Virus record (IMG/VR): IMGVR_UViG_3300033463_000072
Coordinates: 1 to 64,000 of that record
Reading direction: 5' to 3' (one strand)
Origin: a virus
Lineage: Duplodnaviria > Caudoviricetes
DNA length: 64,000 nt
Shown: one piece after another, positions 49,553 through 63,549 of the stretch
Numbering within the stretch: the stretch's first letter is position 1
How the letters are laid out: each line of letters opens with the position of its first letter
Made by a program: the position numbers and the translations under genes
The notes under the pieces: generated by a model
The model's database searches: none
What the model was told of the DNA's origin: nothing
The model's input: the letters and a program-made list of their open reading frames with translations, nothing else

Positions 49553-49581
49553 TTGCAATCTTTTTTTAGGTGTGTTATATT
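49553..49581 (+). promoter_or_regulatory. sigmaA promoter containing a palindrome half-site (TTTAGGTGT, 49565-49573) in its spacer
   Basis: TTGCAA-17-TATATT. Confidence 0.7.
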
Positions 49582-49785: not shown

Positions 49786-50376
49786 ATGACAAAGCAGGAA
49801 AAATTTAACGCTATCCGTGAATTTAACATCCGTATCCGTGATGAACAGACAAAGGGAAGTACAGGCTACATTGGCAAGCAAGTTGACTTTTGGGTACGTG
49901 ATAGCATTATGGTGCATGGTGTTAGCTCCGTTGCTGATGTCCGTTGCCGTCGTGCTGGTGCTGATGACTGGTGTATCCGTATTAACGGAAAGCTGTACAG
50001 GGGCGAGACAAAAACCAATATGGGCGAGTGGAAAGTTCCTTGTGCTCGGATTTGCGCTGATGACATCTTTCCGAAAGCTGACTATGTCGCCTTTACCGCT
50101 GAAGTGGAAGGGCTGACCGCTGAAAACGTTGCTGACAACGTGTTCGTGTTCACACGTGAGCAGTTCATCGAAATGCTGACCATGACCGGACGGAAGGGGC
50201 TGGAAAGCTCGCTCCGGTACAATGCAAAGCGTGGTACAGTCGGGATTCAGGCTTGGAAGCTGTACAGCAACCAAACCGGAAAGTGGGTTGAAGCTCGGCT
50301 GAACAAGTATTATGACTACTTGGAAGCCAATGCAATCCCCACGATTGCGGAGTTCCTGGAAATGGTGAGGGGCTGA
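49786..50376 (+). CDS. hypothetical protein, possible PD-(D/E)XK fold
   Basis: ADDW..RINGKLYRGETKT resembles D..ExK; strong RBS; stop in terminator loop. Confidence 0.7.
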   Translation: MTKQEKFNAIREFNIRIRDEQTKGSTGYIGKQVDFWVRDSIMVHGVSSVADVRCRRAGADDWCIRINGKLYRGETKTNMGEWKVPCARICADDIFPKADYVAFTAEVEGLTAENVADNVFVFTREQFIEMLTMTGRKGLESSLRYNAKRGTVGIQAWKLYSNQTGKWVEARLNKYYDYLEANAIPTIAEFLEMVRG

Positions 50377-50447
50377 AGCCCCTCACCTTCCCCTTGTGGG
50401 GAACACCTAAATAATCGAACACCTAAATAAGCTGGGAGGACAGAGCA

Positions 50448-50732
50448 ATGAAAAAGCTGGTTAATCATTCCGTAATCAGTTCATACGAACTGATTCTGAA
50501 TTACGAAACTAACACCGCTGAATTACGGCGGTACAATCGCCCGGTAACGGCGAACGATGAAGGTACAATCTTTGTACAGAAGATTTCCGCTGAAAGCTAT
50601 TACCGCCTGCTGACCTATTTTGGCGGAGTAAGCTATTTCCGGGCGAACAAGCGGGAAGAGTGGTACACTTGCGGAGTGACCTTCCCCGGTTATGAGAACA
50701 GTGCGAGAACAGGTCGCCTGTTCCGGTTGTAA
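50448..50732 (+). CDS. hypothetical protein
   Basis: GGAGG RBS; followed by GAGAAGGGC-GAAA-GCCCTTCTC hairpin. Confidence 0.75.
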   Translation: MKKLVNHSVISSYELILNYETNTAELRRYNRPVTANDEGTIFVQKISAESYYRLLTYFGGVSYFRANKREEWYTCGVTFPGYENSARTGRLFRL

Positions 50733-50791
50733 GAGAAGGGCGAAAGCCCTTCTCAATTCTAACACCTAAATAATTGAAGGAGGACAATACA

Positions 50792-51013
50792 ATGAAGTGC
50801 ATCCGTATGAGTTTTGAACAGGTCCAGCGCATGAGAGCAAGACAGGACGGTTATGATGACTTTGAGGAGTGGTTAGAAGATACACCAGAAGAAGAACGGA
50901 GCAGTATATATGATTTAGTAGGAGAACCTTTTGACATTGTGCCTTATGACGGCGGTAAGGGTTACATTTTCCTTGATGATAAAGACCGTTACTGCATATG
51001 GGTGAAATACTGA
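50792..51013 (+). CDS. hypothetical acidic protein
   Basis: AAGGAGG RBS; terminator hairpin overlaps stop. Confidence 0.75.
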   Translation: MKCIRMSFEQVQRMRARQDGYDDFEEWLEDTPEEERSSIYDLVGEPFDIVPYDGGKGYIFLDDKDRYCIWVKY

Positions 51014-51165
51014 CGGGCAATTTTTGCCCGTCTAATTATTTAGGTGTTCGGAATAGTTAGTCACGACTAACACGCGCAATTATTTAGGTGTTCATCACCT
51101 AAATAGTATGGTTGACAAGGCGAGCGTATAGGTATATAATGTGTACAGTGAGGGGAGGATAGCAT

Positions 51166-51354
51166 ATGTATAATGGGATTATCGGTGGTTTTCTGCTGGG
51201 CGGCCTGCTGGCCGGAGCTATGTTCGGGCTTATACCTGGTGCTATACTCATGGGCTTAGGCGGCGCAGTAGCTGCGCTGCAAGCTGCCCAGGAAGCTAAA
51301 CGTGAAGAAGCTGAAGAAGGCTGGCGCAAGAGCTACCCTACGTACAAGTACTGA
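51166..51354 (+). CDS. small membrane protein with glycine-zipper helices
   Basis: GGFLLGGLLAGAMFG; own promoter and RBS. Confidence 0.75.
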   Translation: MYNGIIGGFLLGGLLAGAMFGLIPGAILMGLGGAVAALQAAQEAKREEAEEGWRKSYPTYKY

Positions 51355-51427
51355 GGGTAGCACTTATTTAGGTGTTACTCACCTAAATAATTATATTGAC
51401 ATATATATAAGATTGTATTATTATATA

Positions 51428-51553
51428 ATTGTCCTAAGGGGAGACGAGGCAGAGCCGTCAGAGCCTTCACGGGTGGGCGGTGTGACCCATGAGTGTCTGT
51501 AAGACCCTTTTAAGTGCCCCTTCACAATGACCCGTCGCCCAGGCAGGGCGACA
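51428..51553 (+). ncRNA. candidate small structured RNA (cassette without ORF)
   Basis: Promoter 51396-51424, no RBS-led ORF, AAGGGG/CCCCTT closing stem, terminal GTCGCCC/GGGCGAC hairpin. Confidence 0.55.
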
Positions 51554-51662
51554 TTTCATTCTGGAATTTAGGTGTTACTCACCTAAATAAAGGTATTGCA
51601 TTTTATCCCTATATATATTATAATATCATCAAGAGATAGAAAAACAAAAGGAGGATAATACA

Positions 51663-51830
51663 ATGAACTTCAAAACCCTTTACTGCGTGGTAACTGTCAA
51701 GAGCGGTCTGGTGGTGCGTCGCGGTTTCAAACAGTGGAGGAGCGCATGGAGCTATGCGCAAGCCGCAGATGACGGACATTTTGACGAAGAAGGCGGACTC
51801 CGTGTAGAAGGATATCGACTCCTCTTGTAA
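51663..51830 (+). CDS. hypothetical protein (55 aa, below ORF-track cutoff)
   Basis: Promoter, AAGGAGG RBS, MNFKTLYCVV..., hairpin after stop. Confidence 0.75.
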   Translation: MNFKTLYCVVTVKSGLVVRRGFKQWRSAWSYAQAADDGHFDEEGGLRVEGYRLLL

Positions 51831-51961
51831 TAGGGACACCGTCCCTATTTTATTTTTGAGATTTAGGTGTTGGTCACCTAAATATAGGTATTGCACTATT
51901 CCCGAAACTGTGCTATTATATACTTGTCCGAAGGGACAATAAATAGTGGAGGAGTTCCAGT

Positions 51962-52177
51962 ATGTATATTGAAGTTACCGTCGAAGAAGCCGCTCGTCTG
52001 TTCGCCCGTGGTGTCCATGTCTGGGATGATGCTGACCCTCGTTATGCCTGCACGTTTGAATTGCGCGGCACTCCCCGCAGCTGGAAAAAAGCTCGTCGCC
52101 TGCGCAAGCTGACCCGTAAGCTCCGCGGCCCGTGGGCTGGCCCAGAAGGACGCTGGTTTGTTTACAAGAGGACATAA
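51962..52177 (+). CDS. hypothetical basic protein
   Basis: Own promoter, RBS and terminator. Confidence 0.75.
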   Translation: MYIEVTVEEAARLFARGVHVWDDADPRYACTFELRGTPRSWKKARRLRKLTRKLRGPWAGPEGRWFVYKRT

Positions 52178-52291
52178 GTCCTCTTCCCATTATTTAGGTG
52201 TTCGTCACCTAAATATTAGTATTGCATTTTCCCGTAACTTATGCTATTATATACTCAGCCGAAGGGCAATAAAGAAAGTGAGGTTACTAAC

Positions 52292-52534
52292 ATGTTGGAT
52301 ACTCGTTACACAGGCGTTTTCATCAGGGTTATCAATGGCGCTCCCACTTCCTGTTGGATGGCTATTCAGGAGAATGACAATCCGACAGAACGTACCGATC
52401 TGGAACCGGACAAAGCGAAGAAGCTGATGTGGGAGCTGATGAAAGCTGGCGGCGATCGTGGCATCGATATGGATATCATTAATCCCAAAAGCTACTATTA
52501 CCACGTTTCTCATATGTTCTTCTGGTACCACTGA
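52292..52534 (+). CDS. hypothetical protein
   Basis: Own promoter, GAGGT RBS, terminator. Confidence 0.7.
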   Translation: MLDTRYTGVFIRVINGAPTSCWMAIQENDNPTERTDLEPDKAKKLMWELMKAGGDRGIDMDIINPKSYYYHVSHMFFWYH

Positions 52535-52658
52535 CCGGATTTTCCGGTCTTTTACTATTTAGGTGTTGGACACCTAAATTCATACTTGACAAAATCCCAT
52601 TACTAATGTTATAATTCCTTTGGAACAAAGGAATTAAACGAAAGAGAGGGGAAACAAA

Positions 52659-52940
52659 ATGACAACTCATACTTACGGAATCGAAAAACTGACTATGCGG
52701 CTCACCGTGAAACTTCCGGACAACTACGCAACTGTTCAGCGGCTTTATGACTATGGTGCATGGTTCAGGCTCCAGCGCGAGCATGTAACAGACCTTGACC
52801 GCATTGCTCACCTTATCGAGTATATCAAGAACAATGGCGGCGGCCAGATCGATGAAAATGTTTTCATTGATGACGATGATCTCCAAGAGAAACACACCTT
52901 CACATACGAACTTGTAAAGGATTATAAAAATAACGAGTGA
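52659..52940 (+). CDS. hypothetical protein
   Basis: Own promoter, RBS, terminator. Confidence 0.75.
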   Translation: MTTHTYGIEKLTMRLTVKLPDNYATVQRLYDYGAWFRLQREHVTDLDRIAHLIEYIKNNGGGQIDENVFIDDDDLQEKHTFTYELVKDYKNNE

Positions 52941-53052
52941 GGGTCTTTGACCCTCCCGTGATTATTTAGGTGTTAGTCACCTAAATTCTTATCTTGCGTT
53001 ATCAATCCATATGATATATAATTAGTATAGAAATTGAAGGGAGGATCGAAAA

Positions 53053-53211
53053 ATGGAGGAACAGAACAAGGAAGTCAAACAAGAGGAAGAAAAAGAAGAA
53101 AAATGGGCTTGGATTCGTTGTAATAATTGTGATTGTGTTTGCTTAGTCCCGAAACTGTACGCAATCGACCCGTTCCTTTGTTGGAATTGTATAGAGCTTT
53201 TATCAAGATAA
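53053..53211 (+). CDS. small Cys-rich protein (52 aa)
   Basis: GGGAGG RBS; CNNCDC...CWNC. Confidence 0.65.
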   Translation: MEEQNKEVKQEEEKEEKWAWIRCNNCDCVCLVPKLYAIDPFLCWNCIELLSR

Positions 53212-53222
53212 GGAGGACTACA

Positions 53223-53378
53223 ATGACTTACTACGAAATTTACTTCAACAATAACAAGTGGGAAGTATGGGAATGGACGGACTGCGGCACTCATGCCCGG
53301 TGTCTTAAAGTCTATAAAACCAAAAAAAGCGTAGAAAAATGGGCAGCAAAACAATGGTTAAAGGTCACTTGGCGGTGA
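53223..53378 (+). CDS. hypothetical protein (51 aa)
   Basis: AAGGAGG RBS; stop inside hairpin. Confidence 0.7.
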   Translation: MTYYEIYFNNNKWEVWEWTDCGTHARCLKVYKTKKSVEKWAAKQWLKVTWR

Positions 53379-53490
53379 CCTTTATAATTTAGGTGTTAAT
53401 CACCTAAATATATGTGTTGACAGATTGCACTCTATATGTTAATATACAATTGTCCAAAGGGACAATAAATAAAAGAAAGAGGTAGTTACA

Positions 53491-53778
53491 ATGGCACGGT
53501 ATCTTTATAGCAAGGCGGTTGCAGGTCACAACTATGCTCAGGCACAGGAAAACTTTTTCGATGACGGCACAGTCCAGCTCCAAAGCTACAGCACTATTAT
53601 CATTGAGATTGACCCGGAAGGCTGGCTCCATGTGACAGGGCTGTACAGCATGACCACGATCAAGCACATCGGCTGGTTCATGCGCTCCCGTGGTTTGTCC
53701 TACCAGCTGGCGAAACAGATGTTGTACGATCACAAAGACTACAACGTCCGGACGGGCGAAGTTCGGGACTGGAAGTAA
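53491..53778 (+). CDS. conserved phage hypothetical protein
   Basis: LQSYSTII...GLYSMTTIKHIGWF motif of a widespread small phage family. Confidence 0.75.
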   Translation: MARYLYSKAVAGHNYAQAQENFFDDGTVQLQSYSTIIIEIDPEGWLHVTGLYSMTTIKHIGWFMRSRGLSYQLAKQMLYDHKDYNVRTGEVRDWK

Positions 53779-53829
53779 TTCCAGCCCTTTTAGATTTAGG
53801 TGTTCGACACCTAAATTAAAACCCTTGCA

Positions 53830-54180
53830 TTACTGCAAGGGGTCACCGGTAATTTCATAGATGTTCATATTATCATACAGGGGTTCAGAAATCTTGTATC
53901 CTTTATCAATCAGCTCTTTATATGTAGTGGGTTCTGTGATTGAAATGGTATACGTATGTTCGCCGGTAGGTACTTTTCTCGCGCCTATAGCAATTACTGC
54001 AACCAAAACAATAGTTATAAGAAGACCAAAAATTGCGGCGAAACAATGACCGCCGGATGAATCGTTGCTCAAGGTCGCAAACAAGATAATAGTAGCAACC
54101 ATCACCACCAGATTAACAATAAAACAAACATCTACCCACCCAGGCCAGTCCATAATTGCAACATCTTTCAGAATTTCCAT
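53830..54180 (-). CDS. 2-TM membrane protein in inverted cassette
   Basis: - strand promoter, AAGGAGG RBS, stop-in-loop hairpin; paralog of 59801..60187. Confidence 0.8.
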   Translation of the reverse strand: MEILKDVAIMDWPGWVDVCFIVNLVVMVATIILFATLSNDSSGGHCFAAIFGLLITIVLVAVIAIGARKVPTGEHTYTISITEPTTYKELIDKGYKISEPLYDNMNIYEITGDPLQ

Positions 54181-54323
54181 ACTCAATTCCTCCTTTACTG
54201 TACTCATTATATCACATTCTGACAGAATTTCAATATGAAAATTTAGGTGTTCGACACCTAATATTTATGGTTGCATAAAATCCCAAAACATGGTATATTG
54301 ATAATGTAAAGGAGGCATACATT

Positions 54324-54551
54324 ATGAGATACTTAATTGAAAGTTGGCGTTTTGATCCTCTTTATGACGGCGGCGATTATACCGGCGAGTTTGTCCCTCT
54401 GCCCGATGTATTCAAGGATTCATGGGATGAAGCCCTCGCGTACTTTGTCGAACAGGTAAAAAATCCGATGTGCGACCAGTGCTTTGTTACTGCCATATGG
54501 AACAACAAACCATATGAAGATGACGAGCCGGTACTGTCATACTGTCCTTAA
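54324..54551 (+). CDS. hypothetical acidic protein
   Basis: Own promoter, AAGGAGG RBS, hairpin. Confidence 0.75.
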   Translation: MRYLIESWRFDPLYDGGDYTGEFVPLPDVFKDSWDEALAYFVEQVKNPMCDQCFVTAIWNNKPYEDDEPVLSYCP

Positions 54552-54626
54552 TAAGGACAGTATATATTTAGGTGTTAGACACCTAATTTTATATATTGAT
54601 ATTATTCCAAAACATGGTATAATACA

Positions 54627-54817
54627 ATTGTTCAAGGGAAATCGAGCGGACCGGAAATAGGTACGGTGAGTCAATAAGGCTTATAATCCATGGTAAACCA
54701 GACGTAACCCTTGAATAGGGCAAGAGCAAATGTCCTGTGAGTACCATCTGATCAATGGAAAAATAGTAGAAATGTGCGGCGGCGCGAGGGGCGACCTAAA
54801 TACCTCTTGCTTGCTTG
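54627..54817 (+). ncRNA. candidate structured RNA (~190 nt)
   Basis: Promoter 54596-54623; TTCAAGGG/CCCTTGAA closing stem around several hairpins; no RBS-led ORF. Confidence 0.55.
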
Positions 54818-54879
54818 AATTTAGGTGTTATACACCTAAAATAATATGTTGACTTTCTACACAGATGTGATATAATACA

Positions 54880-55214
54880 ATTGTTCCAAGGGAAGAACCA
54901 AAGGGCCACCAAAAGAAGCTTAAAGATTCTTCGGTGGTGTGGAGTAGGGCTTATAGGAAACTATAAGTGGCGAACGCGAGTAGTGAACCGAGGAAAAGCG
55001 GTACTGACGAGTGCCCAAAAATCCTTTTACGAGGCAGAGGATGTGGAGAGGCGATACGGATAGCTGTAGCTCGGCGCGAGCTACTGCGAGCGTAAGTGTA
55101 GTAAAAGGTATCTTGCGAGGAGTGGAGCGCAAGGCCAAGCGCGGGTGAGGTTTCACGGGTGAACGCCGTGGTGTAGCAAGATGAAAGGTGTACTTCGCGA
55201 GTACACCTTTCTTT
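54880..55214 (+). ncRNA. candidate large structured RNA (~335 nt)
   Basis: Promoter 54849-54876; at least 7 hairpins; 11-bp terminator with T-tract; no RBS-led ORF. Confidence 0.65.
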
Positions 55215-55305
55215 AATTCTATGATTTAGGTGTCAAACACCTAAATTATTAGTTTGACATTATATGCGTATATGATATAATGTATATGAAAGGAGATGTT
55301 ACAAA

Positions 55306-55866
55306 ATGTACGTAGGAATGTTTATTAGTAGGCATAAGGATAATAGATGTGTTCTTAATTTTCAATCTCGTACCAAAATGTTCTTCATGGATAAAGAAAT
55401 TCCCGCTTATTATAAAGATTTTAAACAATTTGTTGAAGAAGGACAGCCCGGCGAAATGTGTCGTTTTTACATGAGCGCAAGTGAGCGTAATATGGAAAAG
55501 ACGCAAAAAGAACTCGCATGCCGTCTTATTAGAGAACCTATCGACTTTACTCGGCTTAATGGTATTGCAACATCTATTGCAATGAAATCGGAACAAGAAA
55601 CCTTTAAAAAATGGTTATTTGATTTTGACTGTCCTATTACTGGCTTAATGATGGAATTTTGTAGTGAGTTAATGGACATGGGATTTATTCCTAAGTGGTA
55701 TCTCTCTCCTAATGGTTACTCTGTTATCATTGAACACGGTTTTGATATTCGTGAATTTCTTGACCGTTGGAATAAACGTTTACAGCAGATTGATCCGAAA
55801 TACAGTGTAGAACTTAAACGCAATGCAATGGTGATTGTGGATTGGGAAACTAAAAGTGCCGAATAA
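55306..55866 (+). CDS. conserved phage protein, possible AEP/PrimPol-like fold
   Basis: FISRHKDN, WLFDFD, SPNGYSV..EHGFD; own promoter and terminator. Confidence 0.7.
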   Translation: MYVGMFISRHKDNRCVLNFQSRTKMFFMDKEIPAYYKDFKQFVEEGQPGEMCRFYMSASERNMEKTQKELACRLIREPIDFTRLNGIATSIAMKSEQETFKKWLFDFDCPITGLMMEFCSELMDMGFIPKWYLSPNGYSVIIEHGFDIREFLDRWNKRLQQIDPKYSVELKRNAMVIVDWETKSAE

Positions 55867-55969
55867 TCGGCACTTCCCATAATTTAGGTGTTCGACACTT
55901 AAATCTTGATATCGACAATCATATATATATCTGCTATAATATTTATAGTTCAAGGAAGGAGAACTGATT

Positions 55970-56137
55970 GTGAAACGATTTAAAGTATTGCTGATTATCA
56001 CCGCGCTTCTCGGCTTGCTGGTTCTTGCCGGATGTGAAGCGCAATATCGCCCCGAAGGTAGTAACTGGTCTTTCGGGACGGATGCGTCCATTTATTATAC
56101 TCCTAAGAATAGTAAATGGACAATCAAAGTTTGGTAA
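55970..56137 (+). CDS. small lipoprotein (55 aa)
   Basis: GTG start with AAGGAG RBS; MKRFK + hydrophobic stretch + LAGC lipobox. Confidence 0.75.
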   Translation: MKRFKVLLIITALLGLLVLAGCEAQYRPEGSNWSFGTDASIYYTPKNSKWTIKVW

Positions 56138-56274
56138 CTATGGGAACATGCCAATAGGCATATTTCCCTATTTCATTTAGGTGTTCGACACTTAAATAAT
56201 CGTATTGACTTCTATATAATATATGTTATAATAAGATTGTCCAAAGGGACAGCAAAGGAAAGGAGATAAAAAGC

Positions 56275-56514
56275 ATGTACCTCTTCTATGCGGAACGTAA
56301 CGGATGGATCCCAGCAGGCAGCGATGGTCAACTTAAGTTGCCGAGAAATAACATGTCTCGCCGTGCCATTGAAGATGTGGCAAGAAAGTTCATTGGCAAT
56401 AGAGCTGGCGTGATATATCTTATGCATGAGTGGACACAGCAGATGTCTGAATTGGGACCGTGGGCATTCTCATGGTATATTGCTCGCAACGGCGAAAAGG
56501 TGGTGTATAATTAA
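56275..56514 (+). CDS. hypothetical protein
   Basis: Own promoter and RBS. Confidence 0.75.
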   Translation: MYLFYAERNGWIPAGSDGQLKLPRNNMSRRAIEDVARKFIGNRAGVIYLMHEWTQQMSELGPWAFSWYIARNGEKVVYN

Positions 56515-56722
56515 TGTCCGGCTTATATTATGCTCGTGCTCCCACTATGGAAACCTAATTATATACGTTGATAGAGATAATGTGGCGGCCACTCCCAGGC
56601 CGCCAATTGTTTTTTATTATTTAGGTGTTAGACACCTAATCATACTACTTGCATTATTCTTATAACTATGATAATATAAACATGCACCAAGAGTGCAAAT
56701 AAAATTAAGGAGATGCGTTACA

Positions 56723-56965
56723 ATGACAATGATAGTTGAAAGAAATCTGAAGGATTTTGAGTTCTGGGGAGGCGCCGAGGATGTCGCCGCAAAACTGACC
56801 ACCGAAGAGCTGAATACTATCGAGGAAACTCTTGAACAGATAATCGGCTATGGAAGTGAGCTGTGGAGTGAAACTCAAGTCAATGACTTTATGGCTTTTG
56901 ACTTTGAAGATTATTGTGAAGAATGGATTGGTGTTAGCTATGAGGAAGTAATGGCAAGGGAGTGA
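56723..56965 (+). CDS. acidic hypothetical protein (FEFWGGA motif)
   Basis: AAGGAG RBS; own promoter. Confidence 0.75.
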   Translation: MTMIVERNLKDFEFWGGAEDVAAKLTTEELNTIEETLEQIIGYGSELWSETQVNDFMAFDFEDYCEEWIGVSYEEVMARE

Positions 56966-56969
56966 AACT

Positions 56970-57152
56970 ATGATTAACATTGGACTTTTCAACCTCATTG
57001 TCTATCTGCCCTGGTGGGTGTTTCTGCTGATTCCGCTTGTTCCTTTTATTCTCGCGGGCATCGTTACCCTTATCGTTTACATCTCGGAAAGGTTCTTTTA
57101 AGACTCCATTGGAGTCTTTTTATATTTAGGTGTTCAACACCTAACCACATGA
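56970..57152 (+). CDS. small membrane protein (60 aa) reading through hairpin and palindrome
   Basis: GGGAG RBS; hydrophobic LPWWVFLLIPLVP. Confidence 0.6.
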
Positions 57153-57224
57153 CTTGCAAAACTATATAGTATATGATATAGTATAACTGTCCAAAGGGAC
57201 TAATAAGGGAAAGAAGGTAGTAGC

Positions 57225-57449
57225 ATGGTAAAGGTAACAAAGGCACTCGCAAAAAAGTTGTACGATGAAGGTGAAGCGGTTATGGTCATTCCTAATCGTA
57301 TTCGCCCTACCAGCCAGCTTGCACATTGGACTACAAAGCCTGCTAATGATCCCAATGCGGACTTTGAAAAGCTGTGCAACGCAATCTTCTACTATAACTG
57401 TTCTCCCGAAACCGGCATGAAGCTGGCATATTATGTGAAAGAGGTGTAA
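57225..57449 (+). CDS. conserved phage hypothetical protein
   Basis: AKKLYDEG...YYNCSPETG pattern; own promoter. Confidence 0.75.
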   Translation: MVKVTKALAKKLYDEGEAVMVIPNRIRPTSQLAHWTTKPANDPNADFEKLCNAIFYYNCSPETGMKLAYYVKEV

Positions 57450-57452
57450 ACG

Positions 57453-57719
57453 ATGACCGTAGAAGGTAATTTCAAGTGGGATTTGGATATCCCTAACATG
57501 GAGCTGGATGAGTTGGATGCTCTCATGACGGCTTGTGAGCGTGCCCGAAAGAACATTATTAAACTCAGCCTTATTGAGCGGTTTGATCAGCTGGTCGATG
57601 AAGCAAAACAAAATGACTGTTATTTTGAAACAGTCTCCCGTAGCGGCGAAGTGGTTGGTTTGACCAATCCCAATAATGTTTGTCTCCAGGACTATCCCAA
57701 ACCTCAGTTGGAAGTATAA
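57453..57719 (+). CDS. hypothetical protein
   Basis: GAGGT RBS; hairpin at stop. Confidence 0.7.
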   Translation: MTVEGNFKWDLDIPNMELDELDALMTACERARKNIIKLSLIERFDQLVDEAKQNDCYFETVSRSGEVVGLTNPNNVCLQDYPKPQLEV

Positions 57720-57834
57720 TGCGCTTACAAGCGCATTATATTTTCATTTCAATTAGGTGTTAAACACCTAATACCATACATTGACAATCCTATAACCATA
57801 TGATATACTCATACCGTGAAAGGGGGATTCCAAG

Positions 57835-58161
57835 ATGGCAGAAATGACCTACCACGTATCAGTAGACCGAGCCGAGCGAGTGAAGAATATCGTAGAAAAA
57901 ATCGGCATGGGACAAATCATTAAAGAAAAGTATATCGGTTATGGTATCGGTGGACCAGCTGGGCGGTATGTCTGCATCACGGATACCGGGGTTACTATCA
58001 TCAAAGATGAAAAGAAAGAGAAAATCATCACCATGTATGTAACCACGCAGAAAGAGCTGGTTCAGGTCTACGGTGGCACTAAAAAAATTCCACCCTTCCT
58101 GCGGAAAAAGGTAGACTATAATCAGAGTAAGTTTACTGAAGATGGTAAGACTATTTGGTAA
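57835..58161 (+). CDS. hypothetical protein
   Basis: Own promoter and RBS. Confidence 0.75.
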   Translation: MAEMTYHVSVDRAERVKNIVEKIGMGQIIKEKYIGYGIGGPAGRYVCITDTGVTIIKDEKKEKIITMYVTTQKELVQVYGGTKKIPPFLRKKVDYNQSKFTEDGKTIW

Positions 58162-58182
58162 TGAAGGGAGAAAAGATATAAA

Positions 58183-58344
58183 ATGAAAATTATCTGTACA
58201 GAAGAAGAAAAAAAGGGTCTTATGAATATACTTGACAGTTCGTGGGATTGTCCCTTTAATCCCGAAGCCTGCGGCAGTGATAAGTGTGAAGAATGTTTAA
58301 ATGGTAAAAGAATCCAGTGGGAAATTATAGAAGGGGGTGAATAA
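58183..58344 (+). CDS. small Cys-containing protein (53 aa)
   Basis: GGGAG RBS; CPF...C...CEEC. Confidence 0.65.
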   Translation: MKIICTEEEKKGLMNILDSSWDCPFNPEACGSDKCEECLNGKRIQWEIIEGGE

Positions 58345-58345
58345 A

Positions 58346-58483
58346 ATGTTGGGTATCGCAGTTATCGTATTGGCTATTCTGTATTGGTGCGGAACTATTC
58401 CGGCTAATGCTCTCGCCATCGTATCCGTGATCTACGTGGTGTGCAATTTCATCGTTGAACTGTCACGCAAACTGAACGACTAA
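58346..58483 (+). CDS. small membrane protein (45 aa)
   Basis: GGGGGTGA RBS; two hydrophobic segments. Confidence 0.65.
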   Translation: MLGIAVIVLAILYWCGTIPANALAIVSVIYVVCNFIVELSRKLND

Positions 58484-58507
58484 TATGAGTTGATAGGAGT
58501 GAAAAGT

Positions 58508-58654
58508 ATGAACTATATGAGAGCCATGTGTACCGCCCTTTGTATCGCACAGATTTGGGCGCTTGGTGCGGACAAAACATATCAGAAAGTAATAGCATAT
58601 ATCTTTGCTATTCTTGCATGGGTACTGTGCGTATGGGTAATACCTTGGGACTAA
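58508..58654 (+). CDS. small membrane protein (48 aa)
   Basis: AGGAGTGA RBS; stop in hairpin loop. Confidence 0.65.
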   Translation: MNYMRAMCTALCIAQIWALGADKTYQKVIAYIFAILAWVLCVWVIPWD

Positions 58655-58703
58655 TCCCAAGGTTTATGTTTAGGTGTTAAACACCTAATAGTATAGTATC
58701 GCA

Positions 58704-59009
58704 TTACTGCGATACAAATACTTTCTTATATTCTTCACTGTGCTTACCAATATAAACGGCAAGACCATCGCTTCTCGGCCACTCAAATCTGTCACCACGA
58801 ATTGTACGGACAATCTGAAGCAACACGTCATAAGGATAGAAGATTATACTTGCCCACCGCCGCGGCCGAATAATCAACACGCAACCGCTTTTGAGATTAT
58901 ATGCCACGCACTTAAACAGACGTCGTTTCCACGGGCGCATCCAACTGACATAGCCATAGCATACATCTCGCCATACTGCCACTGGTAAATGTTTCACATA
59001 CTCTTTCAT
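58704..59009 (-). CDS. hypothetical basic protein in inverted cassette
   Basis: - strand promoter 59040-59067, GGAGGAG RBS, stop-in-loop hairpin. Confidence 0.75.
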   Translation of the reverse strand: MKEYVKHLPVAVWRDVCYGYVSWMRPWKRRLFKCVAYNLKSGCVLIIRPRRWASIIFYPYDVLLQIVRTIRGDRFEWPRSDGLAVYIGKHSEEYKKVFVSQ

Positions 59010-59154
59010 CGTTCCACTCCTCTCCCTGATTACATTTACATTATAGCATAAAGTCTATAAATTGCAATAGGATAATTTAGGTGTTAAACACCTAAAATTA
59101 AAGTTTGACAAATATTAAATTTATGATATAATTCTATTGTAAGGAGGGATATGC

Positions 59155-59307
59155 ATGGGTAAGAAGAAGAAGCAGAAACCCAAAACTTGGGTTGAAGTGT
59201 TTCAATCCGAGCGTAAAACGTTTCCTCAAGGTTACTGCGTAAGTCGAGTGATAGAGGACAAGCGCAATAAACCGCCGAAGCATAAGAAAGGATGGGAAGA
59301 AGAATGA
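59155..59307 (+). CDS. small basic protein (50 aa)
   Basis: AAGGAGG RBS; MGKKKKQK...PPKHK. Confidence 0.7.
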   Translation: MGKKKKQKPKTWVEVFQSERKTFPQGYCVSRVIEDKRNKPPKHKKGWEEE

Positions 59308-59582
59308 AGCTCTATACTGTTGAAAGAATTAGTCATCGTAAAGATGATTCCATTTCGGAAATTCAAGGTGTATATTCCAGCCTTCATAATACCTATGTTG
59401 CTATCGGACAAGAACTGAAAGAGGATAAAATTAACATTAATCTGATTAGCAAAACTAAGTACAGTATTGATGTACCCGAAGAAGCAACGGATGGTTGGAT
59501 TTATCCTCATACTTATCATATCGAAAGTCATGTGCTTGACTGTGATATTGACGAGGACGATGACGAAAATGATGATGATTAA
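59304..59582 (+). CDS. hypothetical protein with acidic tail
   Basis: ATGA overlap with upstream gene. Confidence 0.7.
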   Translation: MKLYTVERISHRKDDSISEIQGVYSSLHNTYVAIGQELKEDKININLISKTKYSIDVPEEATDGWIYPHTYHIESHVLDCDIDEDDDENDDD

Positions 59583-59799
59583 ATTCATTAGCCGAGTTAT
59601 TCGGCACGATATTGACACCGGACACAAACTCAAAGAACGTGGAATCCATGTATTCGGTTCAATCTATAAAGTGCATATGCCTTATAAGGGAAAACCGTGG
59701 ACATATTTTTGGCTTCGTAGTGAACTGAATGATGACTTAAAGTATTGGTATCGTGTAACTGATTACTTCTTCATTGAAAGTAAGAAAGGATGGAAATAA
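59569..59799 (+). CDS. hypothetical protein
   Basis: GAGGA RBS; operonic. Confidence 0.65.
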   Translation: MMMIKFISRVIRHDIDTGHKLKERGIHVFGSIYKVHMPYKGKPWTYFWLRSELNDDLKYWYRVTDYFFIESKKGWK

Positions 59800-59800
59800 T

Positions 59801-60187
59801 ATGAGTATCCTTCAGGTAATTACTTGCTATGATGTTAAAGTATTGTTAGATGTAGCAATTATTGGCATTATAGCGTGCGCCATTAGTGGTATAGTCATTT
59901 ATATTTTACACGACGATTATAACACTCCCGCTACTGTAATAAAAATGATTTTTCTGTTCGTTTTCGTTATAGGTTTTATCCTCATTGCAATCGGTGGTGC
60001 AACCAAAACAACTACCCCTTCCGAAACTAAACGAACCTACGTAGTAACAATCACTGATAACGATATGTATCCCAAACTTTATGAACAGGGCTATACTATC
60101 GAACGTCAGTATGACATGGGTAATGTTTATAAGATTACCGGCCCGATTATCGAAAATGAATCCGACTATATGGAAAATGGGACTTGA
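59801..60187 (+). CDS. 2-TM membrane protein, paralog of 53830..54180
   Basis: Two hydrophobic helices + TYVVTITD..Y..L...GY...Y.ITG domain. Confidence 0.8.
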   Translation: MSILQVITCYDVKVLLDVAIIGIIACAISGIVIYILHDDYNTPATVIKMIFLFVFVIGFILIAIGGATKTTTPSETKRTYVVTITDNDMYPKLYEQGYTIERQYDMGNVYKITGPIIENESDYMENGT

Positions 60188-60301
60188 AATCCCATTTCCA
60201 AATCTTTAGGTGTTAAACACCTAATTAAATGAATTGACAAATCCTATAACTTGAAGTAATATATAATTGTTCCAAGAGGAACAAAGAAGGAGGAATGGAA
60301 A

Positions 60302-60448
60302 ATGGGTACTCTGTATGTAGCAAAAAGTTTTGGACGATATTTCTTCTTTAAGACAGAAGCAGAGCGTGATGCTTACGTGGAAACTCTGCCGGAATGGGAA
60401 AAGAAGTATGTCCAGCTCTCTGTTAGCCGCTTTGGGAAGGTGACCTAA
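60302..60448 (+). CDS. hypothetical protein (48 aa)
   Basis: Own promoter, AAGGAGG RBS. Confidence 0.7.
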   Translation: MGTLYVAKSFGRYFFFKTEAERDAYVETLPEWEKKYVQLSVSRFGKVT

Positions 60449-60449
60449 T

Positions 60450-60662
60450 ATGACTACAAGGGTGTATTACATGCCGAATAATAACGTTTCTCGGCTACTG
60501 CTCAACTCCATGTTCTCTCGTGTTGGTTGTAGTATCGGTGAAATCACAACCAACCCCACACATGAAACTATACGAGTTCCTATCACTTGTGAGGATAAGG
60601 ATATTCGTACTGTTGAAAGAATACTCAAACTCTATGGAATTATAGGAGATGTGAAAAAATGA
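60450..60662 (+). CDS. hypothetical protein
   Basis: Operonic ORF. Confidence 0.65.
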   Translation: MTTRVYYMPNNNVSRLLLNSMFSRVGCSIGEITTNPTHETIRVPITCEDKDIRTVERILKLYGIIGDVKK

Positions 60663-60919
60663 GTAACACAAGAACATCAACAACAACGTCTGGTGTCGGT
60701 ATTCTCGAACTTCTGACAGTGGCCTTCGTAATCCTTAAACTGTGCCATGTCATTGACTGGTCATGGTGGTGGGTACTCGCGCCCACATGGATTCCTCTGG
60801 CATTCGCCGCTGTGATTCTGATCGTTTGCGGTATCATCAAACTGATCGGGTGGATTCTCGGTCGCAGACGCCGCAAGCAGAGAGAACAGTTTGTCTTTAC
60901 CTCCCGTTCCCGCACATGA
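60659..60919 (+). CDS. conserved small phage membrane protein (LKL..VIDWSWWWV..P motif)
   Basis: Motif and two TM helices; stop in hairpin loop. Confidence 0.75.
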   Translation: MSNTRTSTTTSGVGILELLTVAFVILKLCHVIDWSWWWVLAPTWIPLAFAAVILIVCGIIKLIGWILGRRRRKQREQFVFTSRSRT

Positions 60920-60995
60920 TGCGGGAATTTTTATTTAGGTGTTAAACACCTAAAACTAACTGTTGACATATTAGTATCAATAGTATATACTATAA

Positions 60996-61282
60996 TTGTT
61001 CCAAGAGAGATCACTGATTCACACTAATCGGCCTCTCGGAAAACCGTTGTTAGACCAAGAGTTGAATCGATAACAAAACTCTCGGCGGTTTAGAAGTTTG
61101 CTTTCTGGTTGCGATTGTGCTTCTTCCGTGAAGAGAAGCAGAAACGGGGAACCGGTAGCGATTGTGAATCAAAAGACCTACAACCGGAGATCAGAGGAGT
61201 CATGACCCGAGATCAAAGGAATTGTTATCTTAGAGGTCACAAAAAAGAGACAGTAAACAGTGTGGTTTACTGTCTTGCGCTA
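60996..61282 (+). ncRNA. candidate large structured RNA (~285 nt)
   Basis: Promoter 60963-60991; five or more long hairpins; 11-bp terminal hairpin; no RBS-led ORF. Confidence 0.6.
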
Positions 61283-61399
61283 GATCCAAATTTAGGTGTT
61301 AAACACCTAACTGTATCTATTGCATTTTCACAATAGTATGATATAATACTTATGAAAAGTGAAGGACACACTATAACACCGGAAAGGATTTAAAATCGT

Positions 61400-61774
61400 A
61401 TGGCACAGAATTTCATGGACAGAATGTCGGAAATCGGTGAAGAGAGAGTTCGTCTTGCGGTTGAGCGGAGAATGGCGGTAATTCGCCGGGAAGCGGAAGA
61501 GAGAGAGGAAGAGAAGCGGGGTTTTCTGCAGGAGCTGGCTCCTGCTCTGACCAAATACAGTGAAACCAAAGAGCTGTTTACCACTTATAAGCTCGGAAAA
61601 GCTGTCTATGGTCGTCGTTATCTGGATTCGGATCAGATCAATGGTGAGTATTATTGTTTCGTTTTGCCTGCAAAGATCGGCGCGACCCTTCAGGAACTGG
61701 CTGAAATCGGTGTTCTGAAGTGCATCGAAGGTGTCAATAATCCCTACTGCCCCTATCTGTATCAGTTCGCCTAA
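61400..61774 (+). CDS. hypothetical protein (coiled N-terminus, winged-helix-like C-terminus)
   Basis: Own promoter, RBS, terminator. Confidence 0.7.
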   Translation: MAQNFMDRMSEIGEERVRLAVERRMAVIRREAEEREEEKRGFLQELAPALTKYSETKELFTTYKLGKAVYGRRYLDSDQINGEYYCFVLPAKIGATLQELAEIGVLKCIEGVNNPYCPYLYQFA

Positions 61775-61832
61775 GCACCCTACGGGGTGCCCTTTTTATT
61801 AGGTGTTAAACACCTAATTGGGATTCTGCCGA

Positions 61833-62135
61833 TTACGGCAGAGTATCTTCTTTATCTTTCGATCTATCTCTAAAAATCCAATAGAAAACCGCACAGACTC
61901 CACAAATCAGAAGCAACAGACCTTTTCCGACAAGTGTAATAACTATCGCAGGCAAGGTAACTATCGTAGCAAGAACCATACAAATGATTCTACCAGCAAG
62001 ATTCAACTCGCCTTTAGTGGCGCGCCAAATCCAATCCAAGTGTCCGAAGGTTTCTTCAGTTGCGGCATTAAGCGCCCCAACCGCAACATTCACGAAGAAA
62101 AGAATAAAGAAAAGAATTACCCAAACGATCGTCAT
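61833..62135 (-). CDS. membrane protein in inverted segment
   Basis: AAGGAG RBS; hydrophobic helices; stop-in-loop hairpin. Confidence 0.75.
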   Translation of the reverse strand: MTIVWVILFFILFFVNVAVGALNAATEETFGHLDWIWRATKGELNLAGRIICMVLATIVTLPAIVITLVGKGLLLLICGVCAVFYWIFRDRSKDKEDTLP

Positions 62136-62154
62136 AATTTATTTCTCCTTTAAA

Positions 62155-62352
62155 TTATCCTACTAATCCACCAGCAACAACAATTCCCAAGAATACCAGC
62201 GCCAAACCGAGAAGAGTAAGTAACACAAATATACCGGTAAATATATAATCACCATCTCCAAAAGACTCTTTGATTCCAAGAATTGTTAATCCAGTTCCAG
62301 CAAGACCAGCACAGATACACAGTGTTGCCATTATAATTCGTATCCACAGCAT
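62155..62352 (-). CDS. 2-TM small membrane protein
   Basis: AAGGAGG RBS before ATG 62352. Confidence 0.7.
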   Translation of the reverse strand: MLWIRIIMATLCICAGLAGTGLTILGIKESFGDGDYIFTGIFVLLTLLGLALVFLGIVVAGGLVG

Positions 62353-62365
62353 TTTACCATCCTCC

Positions 62366-62557
62366 TTACTTACAGAAAAATAATCCAATTCCCAAACCGA
62401 GTATAATTACTCCCGAAAGGCAAACTATTATACTGCCGACAAACAGTTCAAAATCGTCCCTGTCCCTGATATTTTCACGCAGTAGTGAAACACCACCGCA
62501 AAAAAGAAATATTCCCGCAAAAATGGTCATTATTGCTACGAGGTATACTCCTATCAC
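62366..62557 (-). CDS. 2-TM small membrane protein
   Basis: GTG start, hydrophobic pattern similar to neighbour. Confidence 0.7.
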   Translation of the reverse strand: MIGVYLVAIMTIFAGIFLFCGGVSLLRENIRDRDDFELFVGSIIVCLSGVIILGLGIGLFFCK

Positions 62558-62558
62558 A

Positions 62559-62834
62559 TTACCATCCCCTTATCTTTCTTCTCAGATTATCATACCAACT
62601 CGGTACATACTGTGTAACAATAAACACTTCATAACGGTCAAAGCGAGTTGTACCATCAGACCGCTTGACTACCTTATACATAGTATGACCTTTCCAAACA
62701 TGCTTGCCATACTCATAGATATAATTGAGAATAGCAAAGTCATCAAGAGTAGGAAGAAAGTCCTGTTCCATATAAGAATACTGTTCCGTATCCGCATTAA
62801 ACAGACAAACTCTTTTAATCTTAATCGCTTTCAT
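62559..62834 (-). CDS. hypothetical protein
   Basis: - strand promoter 62857-62884, AAGGAG RBS. Confidence 0.7.
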   Translation of the reverse strand: MKAIKIKRVCLFNADTEQYSYMEQDFLPTLDDFAILNYIYEYGKHVWKGHTMYKVVKRSDGTTRFDRYEVFIVTQYVPSWYDNLRRKIRGW

Positions 62835-62979
62835 CCTTCCATCTCCTTTCATAAGCATTATATCATATCTATAAAATAAATCAATACACATATTTAGGTG
62901 TTCAACACATAAATATATTAGTTGACATTCTATATATCATATGATAGAATGACTATGGTAAATGAAAGGAGTTGAAGGA

Positions 62980-63429
62980 ATGAAAACTATCTTCTTCGAT
63001 ATGGACGGTACACTGAATCGTCTGTATGACTACCCTAATTGGTTGGAAAAACTGCGTGCATTTGACCCCTCTCCGTATGCCGAAGCTGAGGTTAATCTTA
63101 ATATGAGTCTGTTGGCGCGGTATCTGAATAAACTGCGTACAATGGGATTCCGGGTGGAAATCATCAGCTGGCTTTCCCAGATTCCCAATCCTGCTTATGA
63201 CCAGGCTGTAACCGCTGAAAAGTATAGCTGGCTGGATAAGCATCTCGGCTCTGTTGAGTTTGATGCTATCCATATCACGGCCTATGGTGTCCCGAAGCAG
63301 AACTTTATCACCGAAGAGGATGACATTCTTTTCGATGATAACGCCGCCATCCGTCAGGCATGGACAGGGCAAGCCTATGAACCGTCTGAAATTCTGACTG
63401 TTCTGTACAATCTCATCAAGGGGAATTAA
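62980..63429 (+). CDS. HAD-family 5'(3')-deoxyribonucleotidase-like phosphatase
   Basis: FFDMDGTL motif I, EKYSWL, ILFDDN motif IV. Confidence 0.85.
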   Translation: MKTIFFDMDGTLNRLYDYPNWLEKLRAFDPSPYAEAEVNLNMSLLARYLNKLRTMGFRVEIISWLSQIPNPAYDQAVTAEKYSWLDKHLGSVEFDAIHITAYGVPKQNFITEEDDILFDDNAAIRQAWTGQAYEPSEILTVLYNLIKGN

Positions 63430-63549
63430 TCCCCTTTACTTAATTTAGGTGTTCAACACCTAAAATATAGTTTTGACAAATACGTACAACTATGGTACAA
63501 TATGTATGCAATAGAGGAAGGATACCTCACAAACCGAAGGAGTTACGAT

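Follow-up and report, generated by a model that had tools for sequence, protein, structure and literature searches.

A palindrome at the junctions of early-gene cassettes in a distant relative of phage SPbeta: a probable promoter-linked protein site and crossover point

In the IMG/VR virus record IMGVR_UViG_3300033463_000072, three short segments of an early-gene array lie on the minus strand, each of them enclosed by two copies of the same palindrome. The locus raises the question of how these segments came to lie backwards, and of what is done by a palindrome that stands beside promoters and also at junctions devoid of any. The record is 83,831 bp long (CheckV completeness, 47%) and its first 64 kb (64,000 nucleotides), hereafter called the window, were analyzed. 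The phage is a large one of ~180 kb and a distant relative of SPbeta, and the region corresponds to its hyperplastic early-gene region. In our reading, the palindrome is probably both a promoter-linked protein site and the crossover point of the early cassettes, and the inverted segments would be fixed products of such crossovers rather than a switch.

The 17-mer TAGGTGT-NNN-ACACCTA (extended form, aTTTAGGTGTT-N-AACACCTAAAt) was found 26 times in the window, against 0.11 copies expected from shuffled sequences, none of which attained 26. The whole record holds 40 palindromes, all of them between positions 51085 and 74497 and none elsewhere. In this array, about 40 small early genes are laid out as separate promoter-to-terminator cassettes with a near-invariant palindrome of 19–23 bp at each junction. 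The standard unit starts with an individual terminator hairpin and its T-run, followed by ~6 nucleotides (nt), the palindrome, 10 nt and the −35 hexamer. Then come a spacer of 16–18 nt, the −10 hexamer, a short 5′ hairpin, a strong ribosome-binding site (RBS) and one or a few small open reading frames (ORFs). In 317 standard units, each position of the 19-bp core TTAGGTGT(T)N(A)ACACCTAA carries ~1.5–2 bits, i.e., more than the −35 and −10 hexamers. An exact-pattern scan of IMG/VR recovered arrays in ~12 further contigs, and the contigs fetched via the protein encoded at the array head carry the palindrome too. A total of 373 palindromes was counted in 17 arrays. In the two complete relatives (181–183 kb), every copy of the palindrome lies inside a single array of ~20 kb, and all strand switches seen in the 17 arrays have a palindrome.

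The three minus-strand segments of the window were read directly as flanked by a palindrome on both sides (Table 1), as had been stated in a preliminary description of this DNA, and a fourth one, beyond the window at 73958–74480 of the record, likewise has one palindrome at each end. The same description held that one palindrome is common to two divergent promoters at each head-to-head junction. Indeed, sigma-A-type promoters were found on both sides at all three, with each −35 hexamer beginning at a distance of 10 nt from the 17-mer edge. For cassettes 1, 2 and 3, the leftward promoters scored 11/12, 10/12 and 10/12, respectively, and the rightward ones 12/12 (59105–59132) and 11/12 (62922–62950), with a weaker TTGCAT-17-TATATT at 54272. 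At the three tail-to-tail sites, no adjacent promoter scoring 9/12 or better was detected, in agreement with the preliminary description, whose further statement that these sites lie between two terminators holds only loosely. Canonical terminators, with hairpin and T-run, are those of cassette 1 (minus strand), 58642–58663 (+) and 61775–61790 (+). The minus-strand hairpins of cassettes 2 and 3 (~58698–58717 and ~61823–61844) lack a minus-strand T-run, and the plus-strand hairpin before 53794 is bulged and was spotted by eye only.

Table 1. Positions of the palindrome array, its inverted cassettes and the array head in the window.
Feature	Positions	Strand	Details
First array gene	49786–50376	+	196 amino acids; PD-(D/E)xK-like predicted fold; invariant D61, E74, K76
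Promoter of the first array gene	49553–49581	+	TTGCAA-17-TATATT; left half-site TTAGGTGT (49566–49573) in the spacer
Two tandem right half-sites ACACCTAA	50403–50426	+	At 50403 and 50419; directly before the RBS of ORF 50448–50732
Third right half-site	50762–50769	+	Before the RBS of ORF 50792–51013
Isolated left half-site, then second palindrome	51040–51071	+	Half-site 51040–51047; second palindrome AGTTAGTCAYGACTAAC 51055–51071; start of the array proper
Palindrome array, part in the window	51085–63462	none	26 copies, one per transcription-unit junction; continues to 74497
Tail-to-tail palindrome 1	53794–53816	none	No promoter on either side
Inverted cassette 1	53817–54240	−	Promoter 54233–54206; ORF 53830–54180 (membrane protein of 116 amino acids); terminator 53841–53822
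Head-to-head palindrome 1	54241–54263	none	Two divergent promoters; central triplet TCG, same as at 53794
Tail-to-tail palindrome 2	58668–58690	none	No promoter beside it
Inverted cassette 2	58691–59074	−	Promoter 59067–59040; ORF 58704–59009 (101 amino acids)
Head-to-head palindrome 2	59075–59097	none	Both −35 hexamers start 10 nt from the edges
Tail-to-tail palindrome 3	61797–61819	none	No promoter beside it
Inverted cassette 3	61820–62891	−	Promoter 62884–62857; ORFs 62559–62834, 62155–62352 and 61833–62135 (three-gene unit)
Head-to-head palindrome 3	62892–62914	none	Divergent promoters on both sides

The evidence for a role in recombination came from comparison with relatives, the closest being IMGVR_UViG_3300031998_000387, which is 80–97% identical over the shared parts. 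Homology to this contig stops at the right edge of palindrome 53797 and resumes at the left edge of palindrome 54244. In between, the relative has a single palindrome, with the left flank of the left copy and the right flank of the right copy. From this break at the palindrome edges and the single site with chimeric flanks, inverted cassette 1 reads as an exact palindrome-to-palindrome insertion, or as an exact deletion in the relative. The forward cassette 66800–67217 is also an exact palindrome-to-palindrome insertion, and the closest relative has its own 1.1-kb insertion of the same exact form at palindrome 56622. Inverted cassettes 2 and 4 are missing from the closest relative, each together with the adjacent forward gene (ORF 58508–58654 in the case of cassette 2). 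Cassette 3 is present there and also inverted, with only its first gene. Over the 17 arrays, 13 exact palindrome-bounded indels were counted pairwise, ~9 of which are independent. Homology blocks end within 12 nt of a palindrome centre in 19.5% of cases, as against 3.6% for random points. The backbone of the arrays is collinear and made up of ~15 core cassettes, among which genome-specific cassettes are interspersed, and homologues of the ORFs at record positions 75070–75570 and 63550–64308 are translocated in some genomes. Target-site duplication was considered and rejected, identical flanks being found only at inverted cassettes 1 and 4 and not at cassette 3 or at direct-orientation indels.

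The palindrome is also tightly linked to promoters. Among 237 strong promoters, the −35 hexamer starts exactly 10 nt past the 17-mer in 168 and 8–11 nt past it in 221, the spacings of 8, 9 or 11 nt being lineage-specific. The leftward promoters of the head-to-head sites hold the same 10-nt spacing, and the sequence of the spacer itself is not conserved. In a minor class of 14 promoters, the distance from the palindrome is 19–22 nt, i.e., one helical turn further (e.g., at 69003 of the record, the rest being in related arrays). The fixed spacing and this minor class one turn away suggest that a factor on the palindrome, which is centred near −54, may contact RNA polymerase on one face of the helix. 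There are precedents in other phages: the site of Ogr in phage P2 lies near −55, and p4 of phi29 acts via the alpha C-terminal domain. As for the promoter-less tail-to-tail palindromes, 13 out of 15 are perfect versus 66% of the promoter-linked ones, a comparison in which decayed sites may have escaped the search. The preliminary description had favored a boundary or crossover site over a promoter operator. The exact indels, the enrichment of breakpoints and the well-kept promoter-less sites bear out the first half of this view. The operator role was not displaced, being indicated by the 10-nt spacing of these 168 promoters and by half-sites in the core promoter of the first array gene in 5 of 11 genomes.

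Variation among the copies gives some indication of how the site would be read. Its central triplet has no consistent orientation, since TCA, TGA, TAA and TTA are all found before forward promoters. Both arms change together in two lineages (GGTGG/CCACC and GATGT/ACATC), and the array of IMGVR_UViG_3300028888_000066 (L024, L028, L046) mixes GGTGT/ACACC with GATGT/ACATC, 11 of its 41 sites being hybrid. Arms changing together and hybrid half-sites fit a dimer reading two half-sites better than a required hairpin. Furthermore, adjacent palindromes share variants, with 13 identical neighbor pairs against 3.8 expected, a number reached in 0 of 5000 shuffles. This sharing suggests a conversion or duplication-like step, and gene conversion or local spread of the palindromes is thus plausible. 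Adjacent pairs with shared rare variants were noted at 53794/54241, 55885/56178 and 51369/51569, as well as at 73941/74481 of the record.

Then, the orientation of homologous genes was compared between arrays. Of 2296 pairs of homologous ORFs located in different cassettes, 2283 have the same orientation and 13 the opposite one, and these 13 pairs come down to four cases. In two arrays the family of ORF 62559–62834 is forward, in most it is inverted; a Zn-ribbon-like gene that is forward in the closest relative has an inverted homologue (45% identity) in one genome. The cases also include two paralogues of this record, the ORF of inverted cassette 1 and the plus-strand ORF 59801–60187 (27% identity, common C-terminal domain). 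Orientation is hence not invariant across diverse relatives, and the check suggested in the preliminary description, a search for the same cassettes in + orientation, gave a positive result at the family level, though for few pairs only. Proteins identical to those of cassettes 1 and 2 are encoded in inverted orientation with respect to their neighbors in every contig returned (~20 assembled consensus sequences, from several JGI, ENA and Logan samples). Resolvase and Phage_integrase domains were not found in the record, in the two complete relatives or in a third, partial relative, while the control genomes were positive. Active inversion of the segments is not supported by these data. Because orientation is fixed in the contigs with identical cassette proteins and recombinase domains were not found, the inversions are old, fixed events and not a switch. 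On an evolutionary time scale, the crossover reading holds. Besides, only one inverted cassette is widely conserved: it is found in most arrays and encodes a protein of 90–110 amino acids starting with MKxIKVKRL, without family match. Its position is distal in most arrays (e.g., 4773–5579 in L010) and internal here (61797–62914).

These observations can be brought together as follows. Each small gene or short operon is a self-contained cassette that starts with a near-consensus sigma-A promoter and a 5′ hairpin, followed by a strong RBS, the ORF and a terminator. On the one hand, the palindrome would be bound by a symmetric, probably dimeric protein that would act with RNA polymerase, the centre of the site lying near −54 in a fixed helical phase. 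On the other hand, no other sequence is common to all cassettes, and the palindrome equals its own reverse complement, so that short-homology recombination would join cassettes there, crossovers between two palindromes deleting, inserting or moving them. With two junctions aligned directly, palindrome and promoter consensus are both shared; with one of them inverted, only the palindrome is. Since the palindrome alone equals its own reverse complement, a cassette joined backwards would have to cross over inside it, which would leave one copy at each new junction, tail-to-tail and head-to-head, and keep the 10-nt promoter spacing, in accordance with what is observed. The three inverted segments would be the fixed outcomes of such crossovers. 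We infer this reverse-joining step from the sequence; it matches the model proposed for the promoter-early stem-loop (PeSL) elements of T4-type phages, which are discussed below.

Several observations weigh against this account. In the comparison with the closest relative, several indels break at gene ends or terminators and not at the palindrome. The palindromes that flank cassettes 1 and 4 share a rare centre unlike that of the single site of the relative, which a single crossover would not predict. Moreover, promoter-less tail-to-tail palindromes are kept (13/15), even beside the terminal inverted cassette, the protein of which has diverged to 31–47% identity. A pure by-product should decay, so that a promoter-independent function or ongoing gene conversion is needed here. 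Possible reasons for the persistence of these sites are a boundary, roadblock or collective silencing function, gene conversion, or decayed sites missed by the search. Finally, the palindrome-binding protein is a candidate only, activation seems needless at near-consensus promoters, and repression from −54 would call for an unusual mechanism.

A candidate partner protein is encoded at the array head. The head gene always comes first, next to the late operon, even in relatives as distant as 43% identity. Its product has ~40 metagenomic homologues, and it yielded no Pfam hit, no sequence hit in the PDB and no match in 50,697 phage records; YonI of SPbeta, at the equivalent position, is not similar to it. 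The AlphaFold model of the head protein (pLDDT 89.6) has full-length structural matches only to PD-(D/E)xK enzymes, modest ones (Z 4–6, Foldseek E above 0.1). They include HhaI (Z 6.0), NhoI (5.8), entry 3ndh (5.7), I-Ssp6803I (5.6), MspI (5.1) and Hjc (4.5), and PvuII was also matched. The invariant residues D61, E74 and K76 lie on adjacent strands (62–66 and 69–77), in the arrangement expected of an alpha-beta-beta-beta-alpha-beta core, and the nearest cluster in a language-model search was “Restriction endonuclease family protein” (score 0.94). Isolated half-sites of the palindrome are confined to the array head. The half-sites in the core promoter of the head gene include variant ones that match the local type of palindrome. 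From the predicted fold and this gene position, the head protein may be hypothesized to bind or cut the palindrome. At 43% identity of the head protein, relatives still have the same palindrome, which speaks neither for nor against recognition. The palindrome diverges most in two contigs (…000411 and …000386), both of them fragments that lack the array head.

Further elements were observed at the array head. Right half-sites ACACCTAAAT stand 6–12 nt before the RBS of promoter-less genes of the head operon, three times here and also three times in the complete relative G002 (L174), whose head protein is 51% identical. A second conserved palindrome, AGTTAGTCATGACTAACT, separates the head operon from the first full palindrome, singly or in two copies, in at least six divergent genomes (including L173 and L049). 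It is interleaved with isolated left half-sites, and in the NCBI contig L048 one copy is situated upstream of the head gene. Conceivable functions are those of an origin, a packaging site or a second operator.

The account given above, with a promoter-linked protein site that also serves as crossover point, has to be weighed against four others. A stoperator-like boundary, in which a phage protein sits on every palindrome and insulates or collectively silences the early units while recombination is incidental, seems unlikely to us. According to this proposal, the protein could block read-through from either side or bridge sites, and selection, not the recombination mechanism, would maintain one site per junction. 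The sites do occur once per junction, the 15 promoter-less tail-to-tail ones being kept at least as well as the others, no strand switch free of the palindrome was seen, and a symmetric site would serve both directions. In SPbeta, which is the nearest cultured phage by polymerase (36%), a repeated element is bound by the master repressor (PMC10516654). However, the own terminator of each unit lies a few nt upstream of the palindrome, making a roadblock seemingly redundant, and head-to-head sites offer no read-through to be blocked. Fixed spacing and helical phasing to the −35 hexamer are not required by a roadblock, and the exact palindrome-bounded indels call for a role in recombination anyway. 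We consider still less probable that the palindrome is a hairpin at the RNA level, i.e., a transcribed terminator, processing site or stabilizer. The single strand does fold at −6 to −8 kcal/mol, a simple scan sometimes calls it terminator-like, and the joint change of both arms in the GGTGG/CCACC and GATGT/ACATC lineages would suit pairing. This is very hard to reconcile with the position of the palindrome past the real terminator and its T-run and before the −35 hexamer, which is outside the main transcripts, and with the head-to-head copies, which lie untranscribed between divergent promoters. In many copies the organization is 9+1+9, with a centre unable to form a loop, the hybrid half-sites of the mixed array break the pairing, and an Rfam search of 49–64 kb returned nothing at E values up to 0.1.

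The two remaining proposals put an enzyme at the palindrome. Programmed inversion, in which a recombinase would flip the three cassettes as a phase-variable switch in the style of Gin, Cin or Hin, is largely refuted and appears extremely improbable. It is true that the segments are flanked by inverted identical sites, the palindrome being its own inverted repeat, and that each has its own promoter. Nevertheless, the record and its complete relatives lack detectable Resolvase or Phage_integrase domains in searches whose positive controls worked, and the same site also flanks all of the ~35 forward cassettes. Flipping would leave expression unchanged in cassettes that carry their own promoter and terminator, the contigs returned, which come from several samples, all agree in orientation, and the closest relative simply lacks two of the three segments. 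A nuclease-driven exchange is the other proposal. The head protein would recognize and nick or cut the palindrome, provoking repair and recombination between co-infecting phages in either orientation, and would limit its own expression via the half-site in its promoter. We hold this to be quite unlikely. The confident structural model speaks for it, with full-length matches only among PD-(D/E)xK enzymes (type II restriction enzymes, a homing endonuclease and Holliday-junction resolvases), as do the three invariant residues and the language-model neighbor. Other points in its favor are the constant first position of the gene, the half-site in its own core promoter in 5 of 11 genomes, the confinement of isolated half-sites to the array head, and the same rare central variant on both flanks of inverted cassettes 1 and 4. 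Against this, the fold matches are modest (Z of 6 or less) and come with no sequence-level family hit, an early phage nuclease is more commonly an enzyme that degrades host DNA or takes part in recombination, and nothing links the head protein to the sequence of the palindrome. Breakage at the palindrome centre found no support in the array that mixes GGTGT and GATGT half-sites: agreement is stronger there between the halves of one palindrome (odds ratio 8, p = 0.004) than between the ends of one cassette (2.9, p = 0.13). Direct-orientation indels, moreover, have unlike flanking palindromes. Equally unlikely is a self-contained, integron-like system of cassette exchange built on a PD-(D/E)xK nuclease in place of a tyrosine recombinase. 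The head protein would then actively drive the capture, loss and shuffling of promoter-carrying cassettes in either orientation among co-infecting phages and, bound at −54, would also time early transcription.

No earlier description of the element was found, and its closest analogues are the PeSLs, the SPBRE/MrpR sites of SPbeta and the 17-bp repeats of cluster O phages. PeSLs mediate cassette indels by homologous recombination in T4-type phages (PMC2839356, PMC4122927), and in the model proposed for them, recombination between flanking elements yields a single chimeric element and can excise mini-circles (PMC2839356). Both systems have small ORFans in a hyperplastic early region, framed by a composite of terminator and strong sigma-70-type promoter. 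In both, the elements are also the breakpoints of the indels or replacements that distinguish close relatives, and the shorter genome has a single chimeric element. In the PeSLs, the repeated stem-loop is the terminator, whereas here the terminators all differ and a separate palindrome lies between terminator and promoter. The reverse joining that the palindrome permits here, with one site per junction, is not described in the PeSL passages searched. The T4-type lineage is, besides, unrelated to the SPbeta-like phage studied here, which has Gram-positive-type signals. As for SPbeta, SPBRE is bound by the master repressor MrpR/YopR, which has a tyrosine-recombinase fold, at ~10 early promoter regions (PMC10516654). 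We located SPBRE copies ending ~7 nt upstream of the −35 hexamer (aimR, yonX) and others just before an RBS. Thus, both are short repeated elements of early promoter regions, at ~7 nt from the −35 hexamer in SPbeta and 10 nt here, and the SPBRE copies before RBSs resemble the half-sites before head-operon RBSs. By contrast, the SPBRE sequence is roughly ACAAATAC-A-rich-ATGTATA (seven SPbeta promoter regions) and bears no resemblance to TTAGGTGT...ACACCTAA. It has ~10 sites in SPbeta versus 40 here and has not been reported to serve as a boundary of cassettes or as a crossover point. No match to YopR/MrpR or Phage_integrase was found in the record or the two complete relatives, in a single-sequence search that could miss a remote homologue.

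The 17-bp dyad repeats of cluster O mycobacteriophages have the same architecture as the palindrome, being formed by 7-bp inverted repeats around 3 variable bp, with more than 30 copies per genome, a central triplet not oriented to transcription and a predicted binding of a dimeric protein (PMC4351075). Unlike the palindrome, they are genome-wide, a third of them lie inside genes and most are not near promoters, and, according to the authors, few if any take part in insertions, deletions or rearrangements between genomes (PMC4351075). The sites described here are strictly intergenic, phased to promoters and coincident with indel breakpoints. The stoperators of cluster A mycobacteriophages also are dozens of copies of one short intergenic site, some of them promoter-less, and would allow one protein to silence an entire region of the genome. 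They differ in being asymmetric, oriented to transcription and genome-wide, in temperate phages with a known immunity repressor (summary in PMC4351075). Here the site is symmetric and confined to one 23-kb array, in a phage without integrase. Like integron attC cassettes, the present ones are small mobile gene cassettes split by palindromic recombination sites, imperfectly so in the case of attC. Integrons need the IntI tyrosine recombinase, and their cassettes are mostly promoter-less and in a single orientation. No such recombinase was found here, and every cassette has its own promoter.

Hyperplastic early regions hold the fastest-evolving genes for host takeover and counter-defence, and the mechanism by which genes enter and leave them is understood for few model groups, chiefly through the PeSLs of T4-type phages. 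The present clade of uncultured phages provides a clean second example, with an invariant junction palindrome, many independent base-exact indels and a simple structural reason for the backward entry of cassettes. It also poses a regulatory puzzle, that of a site phased to ~300 promoters and equally conserved without a promoter, for which a concrete candidate partner protein is at hand. If the link to the nuclease were true, this would be a new kind of gene-capture system.

Concerning the phage itself, the left part of the window codes for a RecJ-like exonuclease, a DnaE/YorL-type DNA polymerase of 1321 amino acids, an NrdD-type reductase, a tape measure protein and a terminase-like protein. 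The best match of the polymerase among cultured phages is YorL of the SPbeta-group Bacillus phages (36% identity), and a gene with a YonG_N domain adjoins the array in relatives. A DNA search with 50–64 kb returned no close relative among cultured phages. The AGGAGG-like RBSs and TTGACA-17-TATAAT promoters make a Firmicute host probable, and the phages of this clade, having no integrase, are probably not temperate. From the IMG/VR sample numbers, we take the samples of the clade to be rumen or gut metagenomes. A host regulon as the source of the palindrome was rejected. Across 185,579 species genomes, the palindrome was met only as scattered single copies in unrelated taxa, never in an array and never in a sequence similar to this phage, and thus gave no clue to the host or to a host factor.

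The cassette ORFs are ORFans, with family matches absent or weak. Pfam and PHROGs searches with 20 cassette and head proteins revealed no DNA-binding domain, the only hits being a weak 5′-3′ deoxyribonucleotidase/HAD match for 62980–63429 and two PHROGs of unknown function. Three cassettes (51386–51568, 54839–55226 and 60953–61292) have a promoter and a terminator and no RBS-led ORF, and these are probably small RNAs. A semi-conserved hairpin, aTTGTCC-AAA-GGGACAAt, is found ~60–76 nt past the palindromes, at the predicted 5′ end of many cassette transcripts (e.g., 53449–53466, 56238–56251 and 60267–60284), and is probably a 5′ stabilizer or a processing signal. Lastly, in the structural region (12151–49326), the ORFs called with translation table 11 are short and fragmented, which is consistent with TAG being a sense codon in late genes. 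The gene adjoining the array head, which is called at ~435 amino acids in relatives, is likewise consistent with TAG being read as sense.

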